This document shows, piece by piece, positions 1 to 9,014 of a stretch of DNA of 9,014 nucleotides. Origin of the DNA: a virus (Duplodnaviria > Heunggongvirae > Uroviricota > Caudoviricetes). The stretch is from IMG/VR virus record IMGVR_UViG_2636415610_000010. One strand, 5' to 3'. The notes beneath the pieces were generated by a model. That model saw only the letters and a list, made by a program, of their open reading frames with translations, was not told the origin of the DNA and did no database searches. Made by a program: the position numbers and the translations under genes. Each line of letters begins with the position of its first letter. Positions within the stretch are counted from its first letter, which is position 1.

Positions 1-221
1 ATGTTCAGGCTTGTTGTCCTGCGCGCGCGTATTGCTCGTGAAATTGCTGTACCCAATAGTGATGTCCGAAAAAACCTCCGTTCTCACATGAAACAGCCAT
101 ATGCAACTGGTAACTGAACAGACTGGTAGACCGTTCGTTCAGTAAATACCTGATATTTTCGCCAACGAGAAATTGCGTTGGCTGGCAGGGTGCAAATTTG
201 CACGATGGACTAACCCATTGA

Positions 222-246
222 TTCTTTCGAAAACCCCCATTGGGGG
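222..246 (-). terminator. Possible weak intrinsic terminator downstream of the PerC-like gene
   Basis: CCCCCA-t-TGGGGG hairpin at 234-246; on the minus strand it is followed by TTTTCGAAAGAA (complement of 222-233). Short stem and interrupted T-tract, so weak. Confidence 0.3.
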
Positions 247-362
247 AAAAGCCTAACTCATTGGTTTTCCCACAATCCTCAATTTGAGGAATGTACCTAA
301 AACCATTTTTATAGCTCCGATCCCTTCAAAGTGAGGGGTAATTTGCCAAAACAGAGAGAGCA

Positions 363-650
363 TTACTGTCTCTGGCAATCTTTATCGCGATAACGCCTGA
401 AGTACCCTCTCGCTTCCTCATCCATACCAAGAGCCGAATGAGTCCGCTTAACTGCCTGTCTTAAATCTCCGAATCTGTCTGTAGTTGCTGGTGGGCGTGC
501 CGCCTTACGGATACATTCAGAGCGTCTGTTTGCTGCATGTTCACGTTCTTTATCGCCATCTGCCAGCATCATGACTTCTGCCCATCGTGCGGCAGCTCTC
601 CGGTATAGCCCTTTTGACTCCAGCTCTTCAGCTTTCCTGTCCCTTATCAT
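363..650 (-). CDS. Small basic regulator, PerC/Pch-family-like (95 aa)
   Basis: ORF from track; GAGG Shine-Dalgarno 5 nt upstream of the ATG. N-terminal LESKGLYRRAAARWAEVM matches my recollection of the PerC-family signature (LE..GLWRRAA.RW). Family call is from memory, not a search. Confidence 0.55.
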   Translation of the reverse strand: MIRDRKAEELESKGLYRRAAARWAEVMMLADGDKEREHAANRRSECIRKAARPPATTDRFGDLRQAVKRTHSALGMDEEARGYFRRYRDKDCQRQ

Positions 651-686
651 TTCTGCCTCTCAGATTATATAGATAAGCAAAAAGGT

Positions 687-807
687 GTTGGTTCAGTTGG
701 TTCAGTTGGTTCAATTTGTAAAGATCGTTGTTTTTATTGTGTTTTTTCTGAAATATTGAACCAACATCAACTCATTTTGAACCAACACAGCCCAGCTCTG
801 AACCAAC
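687..807. repeat. Iteron-like array: 3 contiguous tandem GTTGGTTCA plus 3 inverted copies at exact 21-bp phasing
   Basis: Directly seen. GTTGGTTCA at 687-695, 696-704, 705-713; TGAACCAAC (reverse complement) at 757-765, 778-786, 799-807. A T-rich spacer lies between the two sets. Sits in the divergent intergenic region between the genes at 650 (minus) and 910 (plus). Confidence 0.85.
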
Positions 808-909
808 AACACAGCGATAGCTTTGTGATTGGCCCGTTATTTTCTGGCTGATATTTGAGCGTATAACAGTGTTATACAGTGGTATACTGTATGGATATTA
901 CTCACTGAT

Positions 910-1353
910 ATGGTCTTTGCAATGAGCAAATCTAATCTGGTCGCGTTCCGCATCCCATCTGAATTGCAGGATGAGTTTAATCGGTCTGTTCTCGCTTCTG
1001 GAGGGGATAAAACCTCCTGGCTTGTTGATGCGATTCGCATGAAGCTGGGACAGCCGGAAAAGTCTATTGATTCACGAATGCTTGGGCTGGTGGAGCGCAT
1101 GGAAAAAGCCGCTGCGTCGCTTATTGCCGGAAAGCCGAACATCCCACCAAAGCCATATAACGAAACGGCAGTTATAAAGATCATTGCCGATACCATCCGA
1201 CAGGGATTTGATAATGGGCGTGTGATAGCGGAACGGCTCAATGAAGCAGGCTATCAAACAAAAGCTGGTAAAGCATGGGATAAAGACATTTACAGCGCGT
1301 GGAAGCGTCAGGGAAGCAATGCTGAAAAGTTATCAGTGGCTCTAAGAATGTAG
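910..1353 (+). CDS. Arc/Mnt-type ribbon-helix-helix DNA-binding protein with C-terminal recombinase-like HTH segment (147 aa; alternative start at 922)
   Basis: N-terminus LVAFRIPSELQDEFNRSVLASGGDKTSWLVDAIRMKL has the strand-helix-helix pattern of Arc/Mnt/CopG repressors. C-terminal IAERLNEAGYQTKAGKAWDKDIYSAWKR resembles the recombinase-type DNA-binding motif. No clear Shine-Dalgarno at either candidate ATG. The overlapping minus-strand ORFs 837-1241 and 1072-1257 look like shadow ORFs. Confidence 0.7.
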   Translation: MVFAMSKSNLVAFRIPSELQDEFNRSVLASGGDKTSWLVDAIRMKLGQPEKSIDSRMLGLVERMEKAAASLIAGKPNIPPKPYNETAVIKIIADTIRQGFDNGRVIAERLNEAGYQTKAGKAWDKDIYSAWKRQGSNAEKLSVALRM

Positions 1354-1369
1354 CCCTATATTTTGATTT

Positions 1370-1747
1370 TTAGACGTGCTTGGAGAACAGGTAGCGTGCC
1401 ATCACTAAAACAATGCCAAAGACTTCAGCGAGGGTTCCCCCCATAAATAGGTTTATAACGAAATCACTAAAATGGAGCAGTTTTGCTCCAATAAGGACAA
1501 AAATCCCATTCATAACTAATAGCTGGCCTATCAGAATGCCGATAAACCACCGAGCAAACATTTTTTTCAGTTTTGTGTCTGTTTTTAAATCTTTTGTTTT
1601 TGCACGCTGATGGGCTTTGGCTGGATCCTCATCATTTAGATGTGTGAGGGTTTTTGCTGATGGTGATGAGCCAGAGGCTGGTTCACCTCTGGCTTGTCTT
1701 GCCGCTTGCTTTAGTTTTTCAGATATAGCGTAAGATCTAGACGTCAT
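1370..1747 (-). CDS. Small membrane protein: charged N-terminal ~60 aa plus two C-terminal transmembrane helices (125 aa)
   Basis: ATG at 1747-1745 lies 3 nt after the TGA stop (1753-1751) of the upstream peptidase gene, so the two are translationally coupled. Lys/Ala/Gln-rich N-terminus, then two hydrophobic helices (FARWFIGILIGQLLVMNGIFVLIGAKLL and FVINLFMGGTLAEVFGIVLVMARYLF). AT-rich coding sequence. Confidence 0.7.
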   Translation of the reverse strand: MTSRSYAISEKLKQAARQARGEPASGSSPSAKTLTHLNDEDPAKAHQRAKTKDLKTDTKLKKMFARWFIGILIGQLLVMNGIFVLIGAKLLHFSDFVINLFMGGTLAEVFGIVLVMARYLFSKHV

Positions 1748-1750
1748 TAC

Positions 1751-2233
1751 TCATCGAAGCCCTAAATTCTTTAGGCGATAACGTATAGCATCATCGGATA
1801 CACCAAAATAGGAAGCCATCATTACTGGTGCATATCCTGCATTGTTGAGGCGTCGAACCTCTTTTTCTGGCATGAGAAGACATGCTGCAAAGTTATTGGC
1901 GAATATTTCTTCGCTGTCTACACCTTGGCTTGCCAGTTTTCCGCGGTAATCAACAAACTCATATTCAAGTGGCTGACCGTTCTCAGTTCGTTTGACGTAA
2001 TGCCCTAACTCATGCGCACACGTAAATCGTTTGCGCACGTTACTATCATTACGATTGAGTATGATTACTGGATCTTGTTCTGGCTCTTTCAGCAATGCGC
2101 CTGAAACATCATCATCAAGCGTGGTTTCAACAACATCCAACCCTAACTCATTGGCAATCCATACTGGATCAACCGGGAATTTCCTATCGCCCCAGATATC
2201 TTTCAAGAGGGCATGTGCAGATGTATTCGACAT
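1751..2233 (-). CDS. ImmA/IrrE-family (M78, DUF955-type) zinc metallopeptidase, 160 aa from ATG at 2233
   Basis: HEXXH zinc-binding motif in FTCAHELGHYVKR. Strong AAGGAGGTGA Shine-Dalgarno 5 nt before the ATG at 2233-2231; the track's GTG start at 2239 falls inside that Shine-Dalgarno. Size and motif are typical of ImmA-like anti-repressor proteases. No HTH/XRE partner is encoded next to it. Confidence 0.85.
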   Translation of the reverse strand: MSNTSAHALLKDIWGDRKFPVDPVWIANELGLDVVETTLDDDVSGALLKEPEQDPVIILNRNDSNVRKRFTCAHELGHYVKRTENGQPLEYEFVDYRGKLASQGVDSEEIFANNFAACLLMPEKEVRRLNNAGYAPVMMASYFGVSDDAIRYRLKNLGLR

Positions 2234-2308
2234 GTTCACCTCCTTTGATTATGGTTAAATAGTCGAAATTTTCACCACTTCCCTTGTGGATATATTTACA
2301 TATAAAAG

Positions 2309-2330
2309 GTAACTAGTCACTAACCAACAC
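2309..2330 (-). promoter_or_regulatory. Operator-like site in the peptidase promoter region: imperfect palindrome GTAACTAGTCAC plus an iteron-related AACCAACAC
   Basis: Seen 75-95 bp upstream of the peptidase ATG, in an AT-rich stretch with -10-like hexamers. AACCAACAC (2322-2330) is identical to 9 nt of the iteron copy at 778-786 plus its flank. Confidence 0.3.
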
Positions 2331-2943
2331 AAATCTTTTTGAAGACAGATGGGGGGTGTTGAACGGTTTTTAAATGATTTCTTTGATTTTTAACAGCAAT
2401 AAGGAGCATTTTTAATGAAATTAGACGTTGATAATAACTTTTTGAGCAATCTTTACATATCATGGTAGCCTTCTATGCTGTTTTTCCAACTAAAAGATTG
2501 GCACATTTATCCGCTGGTAGTGGCGTTTTTTCGCCGCCAGCGCCTCTCTGGTTCCATTCCTTACATCTGTTCAAATTCAGCAACCCTTGCCGCGATCTTG
2601 CCGTTATCGAGAAGCTCTTTCGCTTTTCGGTTAATACTATCGGTCTTCATATTGCCAGCAGCATACGCCATCCGATAATTTCGATGCTACGCGCGCGTAC
2701 TTGTCGCAAAATATCAGGCAAAGGCCAGATTCAGAAAGTCGTGATAACCACCAGCACAACATGAGAGGTCATGTAACGCGATTTATCACACCAGATACAT
2801 GTGATTGGTGTACCCGCATAAAACATCGTCATAGCGCGTCCTGTGCGCATATACGCCGATAATCAACACATCACCACCACTCTGTCTTATGTAGAGAACA
2901 GTTTTATGGTGCTCCCCGCCATCGTGTGCGTACTGGTCGGACG

Positions 2944-2967
2944 CAGTTGCAAAAAATTTTGCAACTG
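2944..2967. promoter_or_regulatory. Perfect 24-bp palindrome CAGTTGCAAAA-aa-TTTTGCAACTG, candidate operator for a dimeric regulator
   Basis: Directly seen: 11-bp arms with a 2-bp centre, in a region with no convincing ORF. Shares the TGCAAA/TTTGCA half-site with the 14-bp palindrome GTGCAAATTTGCAC at 190-203. Confidence 0.4.
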
Positions 2968-3184
2968 ATACCCCTCGCGCGCGTACTGGTCACGAAATTG
3001 GTGTTTTGCTGTGGCAGTGATATCAGAAAAATCTTCCTGTTTCACATAAAGCGGATATGCGCGTACTGTAACGGCCCCATCAACGGGGATCGGATTTGAA
3101 ATCCTGACCCAAGCTATGTACCAAATGCCATGTCTTGGATATATGATGATTGCCATTCTAAACAAAGCTAAAGGGAGGGTTGGT

Positions 3185-3535
3185 GTGAATGCTCAGGCTG
3201 TCATCATGGTTTTCCTTGGTCTGATTGTCGCAAAACTATATCCAGACTGGTGGAAAGGGGCATTAGCAACTGTCGCCATCTATTTGCTTTTATCCGTCGT
3301 TAAGCGATCGTTCGTTAAGACCGTAAATCAAGCAAAACGTTTCTCATTTAAGAATTTAATAAACTATATTACTGGGCTTATTTTTTGCCTTTCAATTTTG
3401 ATCGCTTCAGCTTTTTTGCCCGTATCAATAGCTAATTTTTTTGGCGCACCATATGAGGTAGGTTATCTATTCTCTGTTTTTTGTCTTGTTCTTTCCCTTC
3501 TTTACCTATGGATGAGAGCAAAGAACAAAAATTAG
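3185..3535 (+). CDS. Small multi-pass inner-membrane protein, possible superinfection-exclusion (SieA-position) protein; 116 aa from GTG 3185, ORF open from 3116
   Basis: GGGAGGG Shine-Dalgarno (3173-3179) 5 nt before the in-frame GTG at 3185. Three to four hydrophobic helices. Markedly AT-rich (about 35-37% GC against about 50% in the flanking operon). Convergent with, and immediately downstream of, the gp16-like gene, as sieA is in P22. Confidence 0.6.
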   Translation: MNAQAVIMVFLGLIVAKLYPDWWKGALATVAIYLLLSVVKRSFVKTVNQAKRFSFKNLINYITGLIFCLSILIASAFLPVSIANFFGAPYEVGYLFSVFCLVLSLLYLWMRAKNKN

Positions 3536-3549
3536 CCATCCGTGGCTAA
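3521..3549 (-). terminator. Intrinsic terminator of the minus-strand ejection-gene operon
   Basis: Hairpin TTAGCCA-tccg-TGGCTAA (3532-3549) begins 5 nt after the stop of the 701-aa gene. On the minus strand it is followed by TTTTTGTTCTT (complement of 3521-3531). Confidence 0.6.
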
Positions 3550-3553
3550 CCAG

Positions 3554-5659
3554 TTATTGAGCTTCTTTTTGTGATGCCTGTGCGACTCTGGTGAGCGATT
3601 GTGTGACCGTACTGATCGCTCTGTCATATGCTGTGCTACCTTTTGGTGTATTTGCCAGACGTAACAAGGCATTTCGTATAACAGGGCTTTCGTATGCCTT
3701 CGCTGCTCCGCCTACGGCACCAGCAGCAGGAACAACAAACGCAGCTGTTTTTAGCATCCCCGCTAATACTGCTGCGTTTATGATGCCACCACCAACTAAC
3801 AATCCATAAAGCTGCTGACCATTTAAGTTTTGAACGTTCGCTTTTGCCGCGTGTCTTGTATCGTTGAGGTATTTAATAACGCCGTCCAGTTCCTTTCCAT
3901 GTACGCCTTTAAAGAAAGTTGCTGATTGCTTCCTGTTCCGGTGTAACGCATTAATAAACTTCTCAACACTGATATTTCCAGACGGATCAGTCGCCTTATC
4001 TACAGCATTCTGAACTATGGCTGCTCGTGCGTTTTGCCTACCATTGTCATCCAGAAGCCTGTAAAGCTGAGAACGTTCTGATGGGCTTTGGCTAAAAACG
4101 AGTTTTGTTACATCCTCAGGCGTGGCCTTGCCGCTGGCTATTGCCTTTTGAACGCGCGTTCTTCCCATCATGTCATTGAATTTAGACCATGAGCGATCAA
4201 CCCTTGCCATATTAATGGCTTCGTCTGCTCCAAGATTTTTGGCTACGGCTTTTTTCATATCCGCCGTATATGCCTTGTAGATAATATCGCTGGCTTTCTG
4301 GAGCGTATCTTTATCAACAGTGTCAGATGACGCCATAAATCGCTTTCGAAGATCGGTTCTGTTTTCCCTCGCCAGACGCAGGTCATTTGGTCCGCTGGTG
4401 ATATCGTCTTTAAATTGCTGCAAGACTTTTACCGCGGCTCTATCCTGAGATTTGCCCGGGCGGCTTAACACGGCAATCTGATTGTCGATAGCTTTTACCG
4501 TGTTTGAGAGATCGACAGGGGTATCCCCCATAGCGTCAATTATGCGGTTATATCGCTTTCCTGCTGCCTCAATGAATTTTTGTTGCCCTTTAGTCGCAGA
4601 TTCATAAAGCTGTTTATCAGAAATGCCACCCAGACCATCGCTAAATGTTCTGACTAAATTTTCTCGTGCTTGTTGTTGATTCAGCCGATTCTTACCGGTT
4701 CCAAAAAAAGGAACTCTTTCGCCTAATGTCTGAGCCTGACTCTGCATAAAGGTTTTATCTTTCAGCATGTCACTGGTCATTAACGGCAGATTTCTTTCCG
4801 ATGCAAAGTCGACAGCAGCCTTTGCTTCAGGCGACATATCACCACGAACAGCCCTCGAAACCGCACTCGCTGTATTTTCCAGCCCCTTACCAATACCACC
4901 AATGCCAGCAGAAATTACCGTTTGTAACGGATCAATATCTTCTCCACCAGCAAGGCTGGTGGCTCCCTGTAGTGCTAAATCTGTAGCTGCTGATTTTCCT
5001 ATGGCACCAAGCACCGTTCCAGCCCTGCCCGCTGGTGTAAACGCCAACGCATTAGCAAGAAACGAAGTCAGGTCTTGCGGTGATAAACCAGGCTTGTTTA
5101 GGGCATAATCACCTGATGGCAGAGAAACGATAGTATTCCCCTTCTCATCCTGCCTTAATGTCGCCCCCATTCCCTGGAGAATCTTTTCCTGAGACGCGTC
5201 AGAGCCGAAAAGTTGAGACCATCCAGCCTTTAGGGCATCCATGCTTAGTGAGTTCAATTCTGGGGCAGAGGCGACATTTTGCAGTCTCTCCATCTCTGGA
5301 GTCATTCGGCTTTCGCCTGTTATAGCATCCCGCATCGCAGCCCCAAGACTGGCTCCCTGTTCTGCTGAACGCTCAAGCCCCTCTCTTTGCTGAGTAGCTA
5401 ACTTTGCATACCCTGACGCAAGAGAATTATCAGATGATGTATGTTGAATATTTTGAGTTGCTGATTGGGATCGGTCTATTTCATTCGTTGATGGTAGTGG
5501 ATAGGCAGCATAAAAAGCCTGCTTAGCCTGCTCTACACTTTCTCCGGCTTGCGGGGCCACGACTTCATTGAAGTATTGATCCTGAGCCTGCGCTTTTTGT
5601 TCTGGTGCTAACGCCTGATACTGTGGAGAGGCGATAACATCTTTCCATGCTTTAGCCAT
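3554..5659 (-). CDS. Phage DNA-ejection (injection) protein, P22 gp16-like by position (701 aa)
   Basis: Last gene of a four-gene coupled operon; its ATG overlaps the upstream stop (ATG at 5659-5657, TAA at 5661-5659). Gly/Ala/Gln-rich with low-complexity segments. Assigned by size and order, not by alignment. Confidence 0.55.
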   Translation of the reverse strand: MAKAWKDVIASPQYQALAPEQKAQAQDQYFNEVVAPQAGESVEQAKQAFYAAYPLPSTNEIDRSQSATQNIQHTSSDNSLASGYAKLATQQREGLERSAEQGASLGAAMRDAITGESRMTPEMERLQNVASAPELNSLSMDALKAGWSQLFGSDASQEKILQGMGATLRQDEKGNTIVSLPSGDYALNKPGLSPQDLTSFLANALAFTPAGRAGTVLGAIGKSAATDLALQGATSLAGGEDIDPLQTVISAGIGGIGKGLENTASAVSRAVRGDMSPEAKAAVDFASERNLPLMTSDMLKDKTFMQSQAQTLGERVPFFGTGKNRLNQQQARENLVRTFSDGLGGISDKQLYESATKGQQKFIEAAGKRYNRIIDAMGDTPVDLSNTVKAIDNQIAVLSRPGKSQDRAAVKVLQQFKDDITSGPNDLRLARENRTDLRKRFMASSDTVDKDTLQKASDIIYKAYTADMKKAVAKNLGADEAINMARVDRSWSKFNDMMGRTRVQKAIASGKATPEDVTKLVFSQSPSERSQLYRLLDDNGRQNARAAIVQNAVDKATDPSGNISVEKFINALHRNRKQSATFFKGVHGKELDGVIKYLNDTRHAAKANVQNLNGQQLYGLLVGGGIINAAVLAGMLKTAAFVVPAAGAVGGAAKAYESPVIRNALLRLANTPKGSTAYDRAISTVTQSLTRVAQASQKEAQ

Positions 5660-7080
5660 TAATCACCCCATAGTGAAGAAAAGTTACTGCTGGCTGCTGG
5701 CTGTGATACCTGCTCAGATTGCGGCAATGTCTGCGACGAAGAAGAAGTTCCTCTGTCAACTGCTGAAATAACCCGCAAAGCATCATAAGCTCGACCAGAA
5801 GCAGCTTTCAGCGAATTGAACTGGTTTTCCATCTTCCGGCGCTTGGTATCAATGGTTTTTGTGGAGTCGCCAGGCTGAGGGAAATACATTTGATAATATT
5901 TTGACATTTCAGCAGGTACGATAGCTGCCCCTGTTTCCTGACGGAGTATTGCCATTATTGCGTCATTAGCATTAACAACGTATTGCTGCTCTGTTGGGCT
6001 GAGCGTTAAGTTAGCCAGCGTCCCATTACCCAAAGCATTATTAATGACCGCCACTCGCTGTGGGCTAAGCTGGTCTTTCAGTGTATCTATTGAATCAAGA
6101 GCATCCCTAACCCTGTATGCAAATCCAGCAGCTTTTTTAGCCCCTTCTGGCGACTTTTCCATGATCTTTTGGGCTGTTGGCAAAGCTATTGGACGAAATC
6201 CATCTCCAGATATTGGCTGGTTTAGTTTTCCCTGCTCTTCACTTCCGTCTGTGTAGTATTTTGTGACAGTGCCATCATCGTTTTCTCTAACACTCATTAA
6301 TTTTTTGGCGTTTGTATTAATTCCAGCCGCTGCCGCAAATGCCGCCGCCCCCTCTGGATCCGCCTTTAACATTTGAGCGTACTGATTGTAATTCTGCATT
6401 GCTGCTGTTGGTGCATATGCTGACGTTAACGCATTTGCTCGGCTAATATCCTGCCCTCTCGCCTGAAGTGCTTCGCCAGCCTGATTGCTGCGGATTGTCT
6501 CTGCCAACTTGCCACGCTCAATATCCCGACCTTCCATTTGATCTTTGATATCGAAATACTTCTCATGACCGAGAGAAAACAGTGCCATACTACCAGCAAG
6601 CCGCTGGAACCCCTGTGGATCATTAACATGCATTTCGGCAACAGACTCAGGAGAAATTCCCAAGCGACGCATTTCATCTTCGTTATCTGCTATGAATTTT
6701 CCAAATGCCCCAGTTCCGAGCGAAGATGCGATTTGAGCACTAGTCGCAAGATGACCAATAGAATTTCTCTGGTCGTCATCAATAAAGCCCATCCCTTTCT
6801 GAACGCTTTCAAATTCTTCTGGATACTCAGAAATAAGACTGCGCATTTTGTTTCTGTCTCCAGACTCAAAAGCCCCGGCATATGCTTTCTGAAACTCTGC
6901 TTTACGCTGTTGTTGACGTGCCTGCTGATTAATCTCAGCAACGCCTCTTAGCCCCTGTAGCGCCATTAAACCTACGTTTGGCTGCTGCTGATACTGCACA
7001 GGCTGAGGAACGGAAGAACGAGGAGCATTATCATTTTGCGGTGCCATGCTAGGCAGCCCGCCAAGTTGCCATGTCGCCAT
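5659..7080 (-). CDS. Phage DNA-ejection protein, P22 gp20-like by position and size (473 aa vs 471 aa)
   Basis: TAATG start/stop overlap with the upstream gene at 7078-7082. Gln-rich N-terminus (MATWQLGG...). Confidence 0.6.
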   Translation of the reverse strand: MATWQLGGLPSMAPQNDNAPRSSVPQPVQYQQQPNVGLMALQGLRGVAEINQQARQQQRKAEFQKAYAGAFESGDRNKMRSLISEYPEEFESVQKGMGFIDDDQRNSIGHLATSAQIASSLGTGAFGKFIADNEDEMRRLGISPESVAEMHVNDPQGFQRLAGSMALFSLGHEKYFDIKDQMEGRDIERGKLAETIRSNQAGEALQARGQDISRANALTSAYAPTAAMQNYNQYAQMLKADPEGAAAFAAAAGINTNAKKLMSVRENDDGTVTKYYTDGSEEQGKLNQPISGDGFRPIALPTAQKIMEKSPEGAKKAAGFAYRVRDALDSIDTLKDQLSPQRVAVINNALGNGTLANLTLSPTEQQYVVNANDAIMAILRQETGAAIVPAEMSKYYQMYFPQPGDSTKTIDTKRRKMENQFNSLKAASGRAYDALRVISAVDRGTSSSSQTLPQSEQVSQPAASSNFSSLWGD

Positions 7081-7757
7081 TAGAATCCAAGCCCCCCAAC
7101 AAGACCAATAAGCCCACCACCAATAGCGCCGGCCGCAGTTCCTATTCCAGGAACAACGGAACCAAGTTGCGCACCCGCTAAAGCGCCTGATGCTGCCCCA
7201 CCAATACCACGCGCAAGACTGGATGGCTGCTGCGCCTGACCTGCACGAATAGCGCCAAGCCCCTGCAAGAGTTGTCCGGTATTATTGGCGTAGTTTTGCC
7301 CTGCCGTTGCCTGCCCTGATGCCGCATTCATCCCGACATTTAGCAGGTTTCCATAATTTTGCATTTGCCCACTAAGCCAATTGTTATAAAGCATGGGCGC
7401 AATGGAAGATAACTGGTTACTGGTAGCTGTTGAGCCAAGCCCCCCGGTAGCTTCTGCTGAGACAAGGTTCTGATAACGGGCCTGATCTGCCTGTGTTTTA
7501 TATAAACCAGAACCAAAGAAATCATTCGCGGCTTTATTCTGCCCTTCCAGAGTCATCAGTCCTTGTAGTTGTTGTAAAGCAGGCAATCCGACTTCTGCAT
7601 ACGGCTTGAGATTATTCATCACCGTATTCCACTGCTCGCGCTGCAAATCAATTGCCTGCTGCTGGGCCTTCGCCTGAGCTTTAGAGGCACCACCATCACC
7701 GCCTTTTTCGTATACGGCACGATTGAGATGTTTATGAGCTATATGGGTAATTAACAT
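7080..7757 (-). CDS. Phage DNA-ejection protein, P22 gp7-like by position and size (225 aa vs 229 aa)
   Basis: Start overlaps the end of the 153-aa gene. C-terminus is a Gly-rich hydrophobic tail (GIGGAASGALAGAQLGSVVPGIGTAAGAIGGGLIGLVGGLGF), consistent with a membrane-inserting virion protein. Confidence 0.6.
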   Translation of the reverse strand: MLITHIAHKHLNRAVYEKGGDGGASKAQAKAQQQAIDLQREQWNTVMNNLKPYAEVGLPALQQLQGLMTLEGQNKAANDFFGSGLYKTQADQARYQNLVSAEATGGLGSTATSNQLSSIAPMLYNNWLSGQMQNYGNLLNVGMNAASGQATAGQNYANNTGQLLQGLGAIRAGQAQQPSSLARGIGGAASGALAGAQLGSVVPGIGTAAGAIGGGLIGLVGGLGF

Positions 7758-8212
7758 TCGCTGAATTCCTTATATTGTTGCCGAGTTAACTGATAAAGCG
7801 TTACGCCGACGGGTTTACCACATCTGATATAAGCATCATCAAGGTGACCAACACGGGTAGCGCCAAGCAAACGGATAATTGCCCGTCCGTATTTCGTGGT
7901 GTCAGGAACCATAGTGATGCTGTTAAGGAATGGTGAGTTTTCGAGAAGCCATTTGCAGAATAATCGATGTCCTTGCAGTGCATATTCACCACGGAATCCG
8001 GGGTCGTACACCGCATGGCATTCAACAACGCTATGCCAGAAGTTACGCACTTCATGAACGCCAGCCAGCACTAATCCTTCGTAGATGCCGAGATATACCG
8101 CATCAGGCTTGATGTAGTACGTGTGCCCCGGCTCAACAATATTTTCGGTATTGCCTGGCTCGTTAAGAAAGGCCTGTAATCGCACAGGGTTATCAATAAA
8201 TTTTAGTTCCAT
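7751..8212 (-). CDS. Phage protein at the P22 gp14 position (153 aa), function unknown
   Basis: First sizeable gene of the coupled operon; weak GGATGG Shine-Dalgarno 6 nt before the ATG. No motif I can name with confidence. Confidence 0.6.
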   Translation of the reverse strand: MELKFIDNPVRLQAFLNEPGNTENIVEPGHTYYIKPDAVYLGIYEGLVLAGVHEVRNFWHSVVECHAVYDPGFRGEYALQGHRLFCKWLLENSPFLNSITMVPDTTKYGRAIIRLLGATRVGHLDDAYIRCGKPVGVTLYQLTRQQYKEFSEC

Positions 8213-8228
8213 GCGATGCCATCCATTT

Positions 8229-8390
8229 TCACATACAGCCTGCCAGCGCCTTATCTATTAACCCTCGTGCAATTTCATGCAGAGTTGGCGCTACTCCAAT
8301 TCCTGATTTTTTACGCTGCTCTTCCTGAATTTTCTTTATCGCTTCCATTTGCTTCTCACTTATCAATACCGGCTTTACTGAAATAGCCAT
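8229..8390 (-). CDS. Small ORF, 53 aa (MAISVKPVLISEKQMEAIKKIQEEQRKKSGIGVAPTLHEIARGLIDKALAGCM), possible ribbon-helix-helix-like protein
   Basis: Below the track's length cutoff. Strong AGGGGG Shine-Dalgarno 4-5 nt before the ATG at 8390-8388. Stop lies 16 nt before the 153-aa gene start. Short strand-like stretch followed by two helical segments. Confidence 0.5.
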   Translation of the reverse strand: MAISVKPVLISEKQMEAIKKIQEEQRKKSGIGVAPTLHEIARGLIDKALAGCM

Positions 8391-8403
8391 AACGCCCCCT
8401 TAG

Positions 8404-8429
8404 AACTGTATAAAACAACAGTTATTATA
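8404..8429 (-). promoter_or_regulatory. Consensus -10 hexamer with an overlapping LexA-box-like site upstream of the 53-aa ORF
   Basis: Minus strand carries TATAAT (complement of 8424-8429) followed directly by AACTGTTGTTTTATACAGTT (8423-8404), which fits CTGT-N8-ACAG with an AT-rich spacer and resembles the umuDC box as I recall it. No good -35 hexamer. Confidence 0.35.
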
Positions 8430-8485
8430 GTTTCACAAATCGCAATATTCATCATCGTAATTGCAAAATATGAAACAAATAGCAC

Positions 8486-8518
8486 AAAAAAATGCCACCG
8501 CTCAGTAGCTGGTGGCAT
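8486..8518 (-). terminator. Intrinsic terminator for minus-strand transcription entering from the right
   Basis: Stem TGCCACC / GGTGGCA (8493-8499 and 8511-8517) with an 11-nt loop; on the minus strand it is followed by seven T residues (complement of 8486-8492). Confidence 0.55.
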
Positions 8519-8750
8519 CGTTCTGTGTGTCAGGTTTTGACAGGTTTTTTATGGACTCTAAAAACTATATTTATGGTGTCGCATTACTCTTCACGGCAGG
8601 CGCTTTTCAGTTCTGCCCTTGCTTCTGGCTCCATTGGTAATTTGATTCGCGATCAGCTATGCGGATGGTTTGCTGAACAGGCATAACAACTTCTCAGAGG
8701 CTGTTTTCTGAACTACGAAAATTTCGTAGTGCTCACTTTCAAAAACGTCA

Positions 8751-9014
8751 TGAACCGCCCCGGGAATCCTGGAGACTAAACTTCCTGAGAAAGAGGTAAA
8801 CAGGATGACTAAAAATACTCGTTTTTCCCCTGAAGCCCGTCAACGGGCAGTACGTATGGTTCTGGAAAGTCAGGGCGAATATGACTCACAATGGGCGACA
8901 ATTTGTTCCATTGCTCCAAAGATTGGCTGTACGCCGGAGACTCTGCGTGTCTGGGTTCGCCAGCATGAGCGGGATACCGGGGGCGGTGATGGTGGGCTCA
9001 CCACCGCTGAACGT
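8751..9014 (+). mobile_element. Left end of an IS3-family insertion sequence, IS629/IS1203-like; continues beyond the window
   Basis: Terminus TGAACCGCCCCGGGAATCCTGGAGACTAAACTTCC... begins with TG as IS3-family ends do and matches my recollection of the IS629 left end; orfA starts 54 bp inside. Confidence 0.8.
8805..9014 (+). CDS. IS3-family transposase OrfA (IS629-type), N-terminal 70 aa; truncated by the window edge
   Basis: Translation [70 protein letters not shown] is the HTH-containing OrfA I recognise from IS629-type elements. GAGG Shine-Dalgarno upstream. Confidence 0.85.

Follow-up and report, generated by a model that had tools for sequence, protein, structure and literature searches.

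A six-copy iteron array beside a PerC-family gene as the probable rep-distal unit of a paired replication origin in EcCIMP1-like islands

The 9,014-nucleotide stretch of viral DNA analysed here (IMG/VR record IMGVR_UViG_2636415610_000010; hereafter the window) covers the right end of an EcCIMP1-like phage-inducible chromosomal island (PICI) of ~20 kb, and at positions 687-807 it carries an array of six copies of a 9-bp word. On the basis of sequence comparisons, we consider this array to form one whole iteron unit of a PICI-type replication origin. The unit would be the rep-distal one of two in mirror-image arrangement, with the DUF927-type Rep of the island as its cognate initiator; we put the probability of this reading at about 0.7. 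The origin reading is favoured because the same word and architecture occur 3' of the DUF927 rep in islands lacking both genes that flank the array in the window (a PerC-family gene and an open reading frame (ORF) of 147 codons), and because the repeat word co-varies with a C-terminal motif of Rep. The type of origin is known, and its split two-unit layout is the new part. In the literature, including a full-text search with the tandem 18-mers, no paper giving this iteron or a split PICI origin was found; such searches cover text, and the rep-proximal iterons may already have been drawn in a figure.

The array consists of the following parts:

687-695, 696-704 and 705-713, plus strand: tandem arm of three back-to-back iterons, each an exact match to GTTGGTTCA
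714-756, no strand: AT-rich spacer of 43 bp, 79% A+T, with a GATC at 723-726
757-765, 778-786 and 799-807, minus strand: phased arm of three inverted iterons, each an exact match to TGAACCAAC

A preliminary description of this DNA had reported three tandem and three inverted copies at 21-bp spacing within 121 bp, and we confirmed both its coordinates and its geometry exactly: the six 9-mers span 121 bp, and the start-to-start distances in the phased arm are 21 and 21 bp. It had also proposed a count of the 9-mer as a check on enrichment. All six exact copies of GTTGGTTCA/TGAACCAAC in the window lie within the array, and in a 41-kb relative the exact word is likewise confined to the array. With at most one mismatch allowed, 10 matches were observed in the window against 2.15 +/- 1.36 expected, a number reached by 0 of 200 shuffles. 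The spacer, with 79% A+T compared with 54% for the window, is the presumed DNA-melting region. The copy number of the tandem arm varies by whole 9-bp units, with two copies in E. coli E1535, three in the window and four in IMG/VR locus L043 (loci L302 and L043 compared). An Rfam scan of the window gave no RNA family.

Positions 1-8750 of the window are 100% identical to an island of ~20 kb found in E. coli cq9 and in roughly a dozen further complete genomes, and the sequences diverge thereafter. The cq9-type island is integrated between yicC and yicG/dinD and is arranged in the order integrase, helix-turn-helix (HTH) gene, AntA/AntB, DUF4222, ash, several small genes and a 918-aa TOPRIM and DUF927 primase-helicase (rep), followed beyond rep by a proximal array, a 53-aa gene, ejection genes, accessory genes (ImmA/IrrE peptidase and others), the 147-aa ORF, the distal array and PerC. 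In the window an insertion sequence (IS) interrupts the island 89 bp short of the position held by the rep-proximal unit in IS-free twins, so that the twin unit and rep both lie outside the window.

In the IS-free twin L127, the second cluster comprises GTTGGTTCA at 22839, 22860 and 22871, a 43-bp AT-rich spacer and three tandem copies of TGAACCAAC at 22923-22949, thus the mirror image of the window array. It is located directly 3' of rep, ~26 bp from the stop codon, as is its counterpart in EcCIMP1. The proximal and distal units of L127 are 8.0 kb apart, with the ejection-protein cassette in between. When the proximal twin is reverse-complemented, ~45 bp (aaaaggtGTTGGTTCAGTTGGTTCAGTTGGTTCAatttgtaaaga) are identical to the window array, including the first 11 bp of the spacer (ATTTGTAAAGA); the diverged remainder of the spacer comes next, and then the phased iterons. 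EcCIMP1 has the pair at matching positions with 21/21 phasing in both units, and the pair was also found in L005, L086 and several IMG/VR loci. Among 120 IMG/VR loci with the tandem 18-mer, nearly all arrays of at least four copies lie 30-60 bp from the 3' end of a gene for a DUF927 Rep homologue (63-100% identity); the exceptions are PerC-linked distal units, and the two-copy matches are unrelated chance matches.

The Rep of the 100%-identical twins is a Zn-ribbon/Toprim/DUF927 protein, and its residues 402-813 match a staphylococcal 'Pathogenicity island protein' (PDB chain 8tch_A, E=1.4e-11). Reps of Staphylococcus aureus pathogenicity islands (SaPIs) are self-loading helicases in which a C-terminal winged-helix domain recognises the iterons (PMC9371898). 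A profile search with the C-terminal 140 aa of the present Rep against PDB sequences gave no match, leaving a winged-helix fold unconfirmed. To follow Rep and iterons together, 80 Rep homologues of 40-100% identity were taken from GTDB genomes, one genome per species (loci L129-L208), of which 67 were scorable. Most have 3-12 iterons just past the stop codon, in a common layout of two to three tandem copies, an AT-rich stretch of ~45 bp and inverted copies phased at 11 or 21 bp, and both the length and the AT-richness of the spacer are kept across iteron classes. At least 12 different iteron words occur among the 67 loci:

GTTGGTTCA: 35 loci
GTCGGTTCA: 9 loci
GTTGTCTCA: 8 loci
ACGGGTTA: 3 loci
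GTGGGTTA: 2 loci
CGTGGTTCA, GTTGTACCA, AGTGTGTCA, TTGGGACTA and other words: 1-2 loci each

A sliding-window comparison showed that the last ~50 residues of Rep predict the iteron class, with identities of 0.75-0.84 within a class and 0.38-0.47 between classes, whereas elsewhere in the protein the gap between within-class and between-class identity is at most 0.2. A C-terminal motif of ~20 residues includes QRKSPRI in all Reps associated with GTTGGTTCA (35/35), while Reps with GTTGTCTCA have QGRV-RED or QGKT-PRL and those with GTCGGTTCA have (Q/T)RK(T/S)-(P/L)RI. Further pairs of motif and word were K(R/K)KAL with xxGGGTTA, QAFT with GTTGTACCA and KKRT with AGTGTGTCA. Over 500 aa the Reps of L134 and L135 share 96% identity, but they differ in the motif, and their iteron words differ as well. 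The L134 Rep shares only 61-63% identity overall with Reps of Proteus and Morganella, but 86-90% in the motif, and their iteron word is the same. Co-variation of this kind would be expected were the repeats read by the C-terminal end of Rep; the motif is a candidate recognition code.

The array is also conserved in a manner that follows the iterons. Between the window and the arrays of L005 and EcCIMP1, 0 of 54 iteron positions are changed and there are no indels, compared with 28-29 changes at 67 non-iteron positions (p~1e-9); in EcCIMP1, 29 of the 67 positions in the spacer and inter-iteron DNA differ from the window. Mosaic breakpoints between island variants lie inside the array, homology ending at ~787 or beginning at ~774. 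The region comprising PerC and the array is present at >=80% coverage in 335 complete E. coli genomes and partially in 563 of 5,426.

Known SaPI and PICI origins are located 3' of rep and have an AT-rich centre with at least two opposed iterons on each side (PMC9371898, citing Ubeda 2007). Gram-negative PICI origins have the same organisation, and a pri-rep-ori segment of EcCICFT073 replicates a plasmid (Fillol-Salom 2018, PMC6092414). The window array likewise has two opposed sets of short iterons, three on each side of the 43-bp AT-rich centre. It belongs to an integrase-bearing, phage-induced island with a Rep homologous to the staphylococcal pathogenicity-island protein, and the cognate initiator is predicted to be a self-loading helicase, in this family fused to a primase, whose C-terminus would set iteron specificity. 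In contrast to the known origins, the window copy is 8 kb from rep and not immediately 3' of it, the island has two mirror-oriented units with a cargo cassette between them, the iterons measure 9 bp and not 5-6 bp as in SaPIs, and one arm is strictly tandem (9-bp period) while the other is phased at 21 bp. The unit agrees with the sequence features expected of a PICI/SaPI origin apart from its position.

A bipartite arrangement is known from P4, where according to the GenBank record crr is located directly 3' of alpha and ori is 4.7 kb away, both being composed of type-1 repeats. L127 and EcCIMP1 similarly have two separated clusters of one repeat, one of them 3' of the primase-helicase gene and the second kilobases away (8 kb here). 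The primase domains are homologous, with 34% identity over ~340 aa (residues 5-339), and ash and Icd-like genes are present in the window's island. However, the N-terminal primase alone aligns with P4 alpha; the helicase and origin-binding half of Rep is of the DUF927 type, compared with D5_N/DUF5906/Pox_D5 in alpha. The repeat word of P4 is TGTTCACC, and both this word and the internal layout differ from those of the window array. In addition, the window's island has no sid, psu or delta, and its helper is P22-like and not P2. The likeness to P4 is an analogy of design, not one of membership.

The closest described relative is EcCIMP1, a PICI of 19,963 bp in E. coli MP1 for which the P22-like phage Kapi1 is the mobilising helper (PMC11773190). 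The two belong to the same island family and share gene order, several identical proteins, both arrays at the same positions and, beside the distal unit, a PerC-like gene; in EcCIMP1 this homologue of the window PerC (EcCIMP1_025) represses LEE1, in the enterocyte effacement locus (LEE), and is described as its silencer (PMC11773190). They differ in the accessory genes found on the array's right-hand side and in the integration site, which is tRNA-Thr for EcCIMP1 and the yicC/yicG region for the twins of the window.

In the mechanism that we propose, Rep would be made upon induction by the helper phage, and its C-terminal domains with QRKSPRI would bind the GTTGGTTCA words. Hexamers would then form to either side of the 43-bp AT-rich spacer and bring about its melting, after which Rep would load itself as helicase and prime synthesis. 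The distal unit could offer Rep another place to load, or could act in cis as an enhancer through a loop to the proximal unit, in the manner of P4 crr/ori. Rep binding and melting, and any replication activity of the distal copy, are inferred.

The distribution of single, double and split origins bears on how the distal unit arose. A near-identity search of a phage collection with window positions 300-1400 gave no match, and a distant search of the same collection gave one, a Klebsiella 'phage' record containing a segment that resembles a capsid-forming PICI. Weak DNA matches to window positions 668-787 led to this record and to capsid-forming PICI-like islands, in which ~290 bp directly after the DUF927 rep hold both units back to back, in the order three tandem, AT-rich, two inverted phased, four to five direct phased, AT-rich and two tandem inverted. 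The Klebsiella record is that of phage P12620-1 (L002, PQ569648.1); the last ~11 kb of its 106 kb (94970-106503) resemble a capsid-forming PICI and hold major capsid, protease, portal, DUF927 rep and a double GTTGGTTCA origin. An assembly join may account for this segment, or a satellite packaged along with the phage.

A census of 68 islands showed a distal unit 4.8-9.6 kb downstream in 15 of 30 islands with a single proximal unit and in 0 of 38 with a double proximal origin (p=3.5e-7). Split pairs recur in a second lineage with a Rep of ~81% identity, where the cargo between the units (3856-9579 in L212) consists of a Dit-like protein, baseplate plug, hub and gpV-like spike in place of the ejection proteins, and where tblastn detected no PerC in the split-pair loci. 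A class-C (GTCGGTTCA) distal unit accompanied by a class-C Rep was looked for and not found; the distal units concerned are mixed GTCGGTTCA/GTTGGTTCA units paired with a GTTGGTTCA proximal unit (L212, L216), which makes co-variation of the distal units suggestive, not decisive.

Several observations weigh against the origin reading. The array is not at the canonical location directly 3' of rep, which is occupied by its twin, but ~8 kb away beside PerC. The cognate rep gene lies outside the window beyond the IS, and its presence in the window's own source is deduced from the twins. The conservation between variants may partly reflect mosaic recombination and not independent divergence under selection, and the description of EcCIMP1 gives no origin (PMC11773190). 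In E. coli G749 (L001) the array is intact although the C-terminal half of rep (30852-33203) is of the DUF5906 type, like P4 alpha; this island has its own TGGTAYAGGT iterons in clusters at 29603-29698 and 30720-30822, 1 kb apart around two small genes. It is a recombinant in which the PerC-side GTTGGTTCA distal unit has been left without a cognate Rep, and islands of this type make up about 3 of 19 sampled E. coli islands. The array is also intact in L006, a degraded island without rep, so its presence alone is no proof of activity. Finally, a distal unit within 10 kb is missing from the other 15 of the 30 single-unit islands, and for this reason one unit may suffice and the distal one may be dispensable, and the complementarity of distal units and double origins follows equally from a simple historical split. 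The G749 island had also suggested an orphan origin of a foreign Rep, an idea that was dropped since the 100%-identical twins of the window carry both the cognate DUF927 Rep and the twin array.

The same observations can be accommodated if the array is an evolutionary relic, an ancestral double unit beside rep, of the kind seen in capsid-forming PICIs, having been split by insertion of the ejection cassette or by rearrangement, with a distal half that is now passive, perhaps bound by Rep, and without a role in replication. Adjacent double origins are common, the homology of the window to them stops exactly at their centre, distal units are confined to islands with a single proximal origin, as a simple split predicts, half of the single-unit islands do without one, and G749 and L006 have kept the unit although they lack a cognate Rep. 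Against this, variants that differ at 42% of the non-iteron positions agree in all six iterons and in the exact 121-bp frame, at least two diverged lineages with unlike cargo (Rep identity 81-100%) retain split pairs, and the 3+3 iterons around an AT-rich centre satisfy the published minimum for a PICI origin (PMC9371898). We regard a passive relic as unlikely.

The origin might have been split deliberately in EcCIMP1-like and related satellites, with mirror-image Rep-binding units bracketing a DNA-delivery module (ejection proteins in one lineage, baseplate hub and spike in the other). This proposal is tentative, and we would not be surprised to see it fail. The pair could act as a P4-like ori/crr couple through Rep-mediated looping. 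Alternatively, the units could be conserved recombination handles by which satellites of one Rep specificity swap delivery cassettes, or Rep loading at the distal unit could be linked to transcription of the PerC-like regulator, tying island induction to LEE-type gene control.

The preliminary description had offered the alternatives of a cooperative operator or an origin-like element, and had placed the array between two divergent regulator genes. The features of this region are as follows:

363-650, minus strand: PerC-family gene (Pfam PerC, E=2.6e-33), the first gene beyond the tandem arm
861-877: perfect palindrome GTATAAC-AGT-GTTATAC just upstream of the 147-aa ORF, with an extra GGTATAC at 881-887
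910-1353, plus strand: 147-aa ORF, divergent from PerC, with no family assignment

The PerC assignment was borne out. The 147-aa protein, described as a ribbon-helix-helix protein, gave neither this nor any other family in our searches, the only matches being sub-threshold ones to recombinase HTH domains in its C-terminal half. Control of two divergent promoters by the 147-aa or the PerC-like protein through the array would suit its position, as it takes up most of the 259-bp divergent intergenic region and PerC adjoins it in all EcCIMP1-like islands examined. Moreover, the PerC promoter must be within or beside the array, since 37 bp separate the end of the tandem arm from the ATG. A promoter scan of the intergenic region gave no consensus sigma-70 site, and a TATAAT on the PerC strand (669-664) was rejected as a PerC promoter element, being too near the start codon to precede a Shine-Dalgarno sequence.

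Site and regulator do not, however, occur together as expected of an operator. The same word and architecture are found beside rep in islands lacking both genes, distal units of other lineages lack PerC, homologues of the 147-aa protein are found without an adjacent array, and the right-hand gene differs among L005, L006 and EcCIMP1. PerC proteins that are just 54% identical adjoin an identical array, and the word co-varies with Rep and not with the neighbours. The 147-aa protein has no detected DNA-binding family, and its ORF has its own palindrome at 861-877, which is retained where different DNA takes the place of the array's left part and so goes with the ORF and not with the iterons; in strain PKF11 a stretch of 10 bp inside this palindrome is duplicated. 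The palindrome probably serves as the operator of the ORF itself and is a better candidate for that role than the array, and PerC is probably a neighbour in EcCIMP1-like islands and not the repeat-binding protein. A related AACCAACAC at 2322-2330, from which one regulator for the whole accessory module had been proposed, is at chance level, the 7-mer AACCAAC occurring once outside the array against 1.11 expected, and the proposal rests on this match. A multi-site operator is accordingly very improbable as the primary role, and of the two alternatives first offered the origin-like element is favoured. Since the PerC promoter is in or next to the array, Rep binding could have a secondary side effect on PerC expression.

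Short direct and inverted repeat clusters in the promoter region between divergent genes are also typical of plasmid iteron operators and centromeres (ParR/parC, omega-binding heptads). That the array is such a centromere for partition, or a site of packaging or recognition for the P22-like helper that must package the island (no terS was noticed in the island maps), is hardly credible, as the island maps contain no partition ATPase, centromere-binding or other ParA/ParB-type gene, the repeat identity follows the Rep C-terminus over at least 12 classes and not a small neighbouring DNA-binding protein, which is unexpected for a helper-recognised site, and capsid-forming PICIs, with a terminase of their own, have arrays of this type too.

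The remainder of the window contains the following features:

910-3535: accessory genes, located between the ejection cassette and the distal unit
3554-8390, minus strand: ejection-protein cassette with the 53-aa gene, gp14-like DUF2824, P22-type gp7, gp20 and gp16 (Pfam P22_gp7, Inj_translocase, DUF2824)
8751-9014, plus strand: left end of an IS629-like (IS3-family) element, with an inverted repeat starting TGAACCGCCCCGGG and orfA starting at 8805

The IS insertion at 8751 was absent from all complete E. coli genomes searched. Among the accessory genes, that for the ImmA/IrrE (M78) peptidase (1370-2239) has its best match in a defence library to CapP, the protease regulator of systems of the cyclic-oligonucleotide-based antiphage signalling (CBASS) type, and is co-transcribed with a gene for a 125-aa predicted membrane protein lacking an assigned function. 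Satellites of this kind appear to carry their own DNA-delivery proteins as a swappable cassette between origin units. Two other identities were ruled out: the region is not the immI region of a full P22-like prophage, as the ~20-kb integrase/primase island has no capsid, tail or lysis genes, and the repeats are not integrase arm-type sites, as the end near int lacks the word and the array is placed past PerC, away from the att end.

PICI origins have so far been described as a single block directly after rep, and the EcCIMP1-like family, which is common, its PerC-array region being present in about 250-560 of 5,426 complete E. coli genomes, and which includes the experimentally tractable EcCIMP1, has two mirror units 8 kb apart. 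If both units are active, this would be a second, independent case of the ori/crr logic known so far from P4, and would explain why mosaic breakpoints lie inside the arrays. Two by-products are a simple rule for locating PICI origins and predicting satellites that share replication specificity, with possible cross-replication or interference, and a C-terminal Rep motif as a testable candidate for iteron recognition (QRKSPRI with GTTGGTTCA, QGRV-RED with GTTGTCTCA, among others). As the distal unit abuts the promoter region of a PerC-like LEE1 silencer, satellite induction would be linked to virulence regulation if Rep binding affects PerC.

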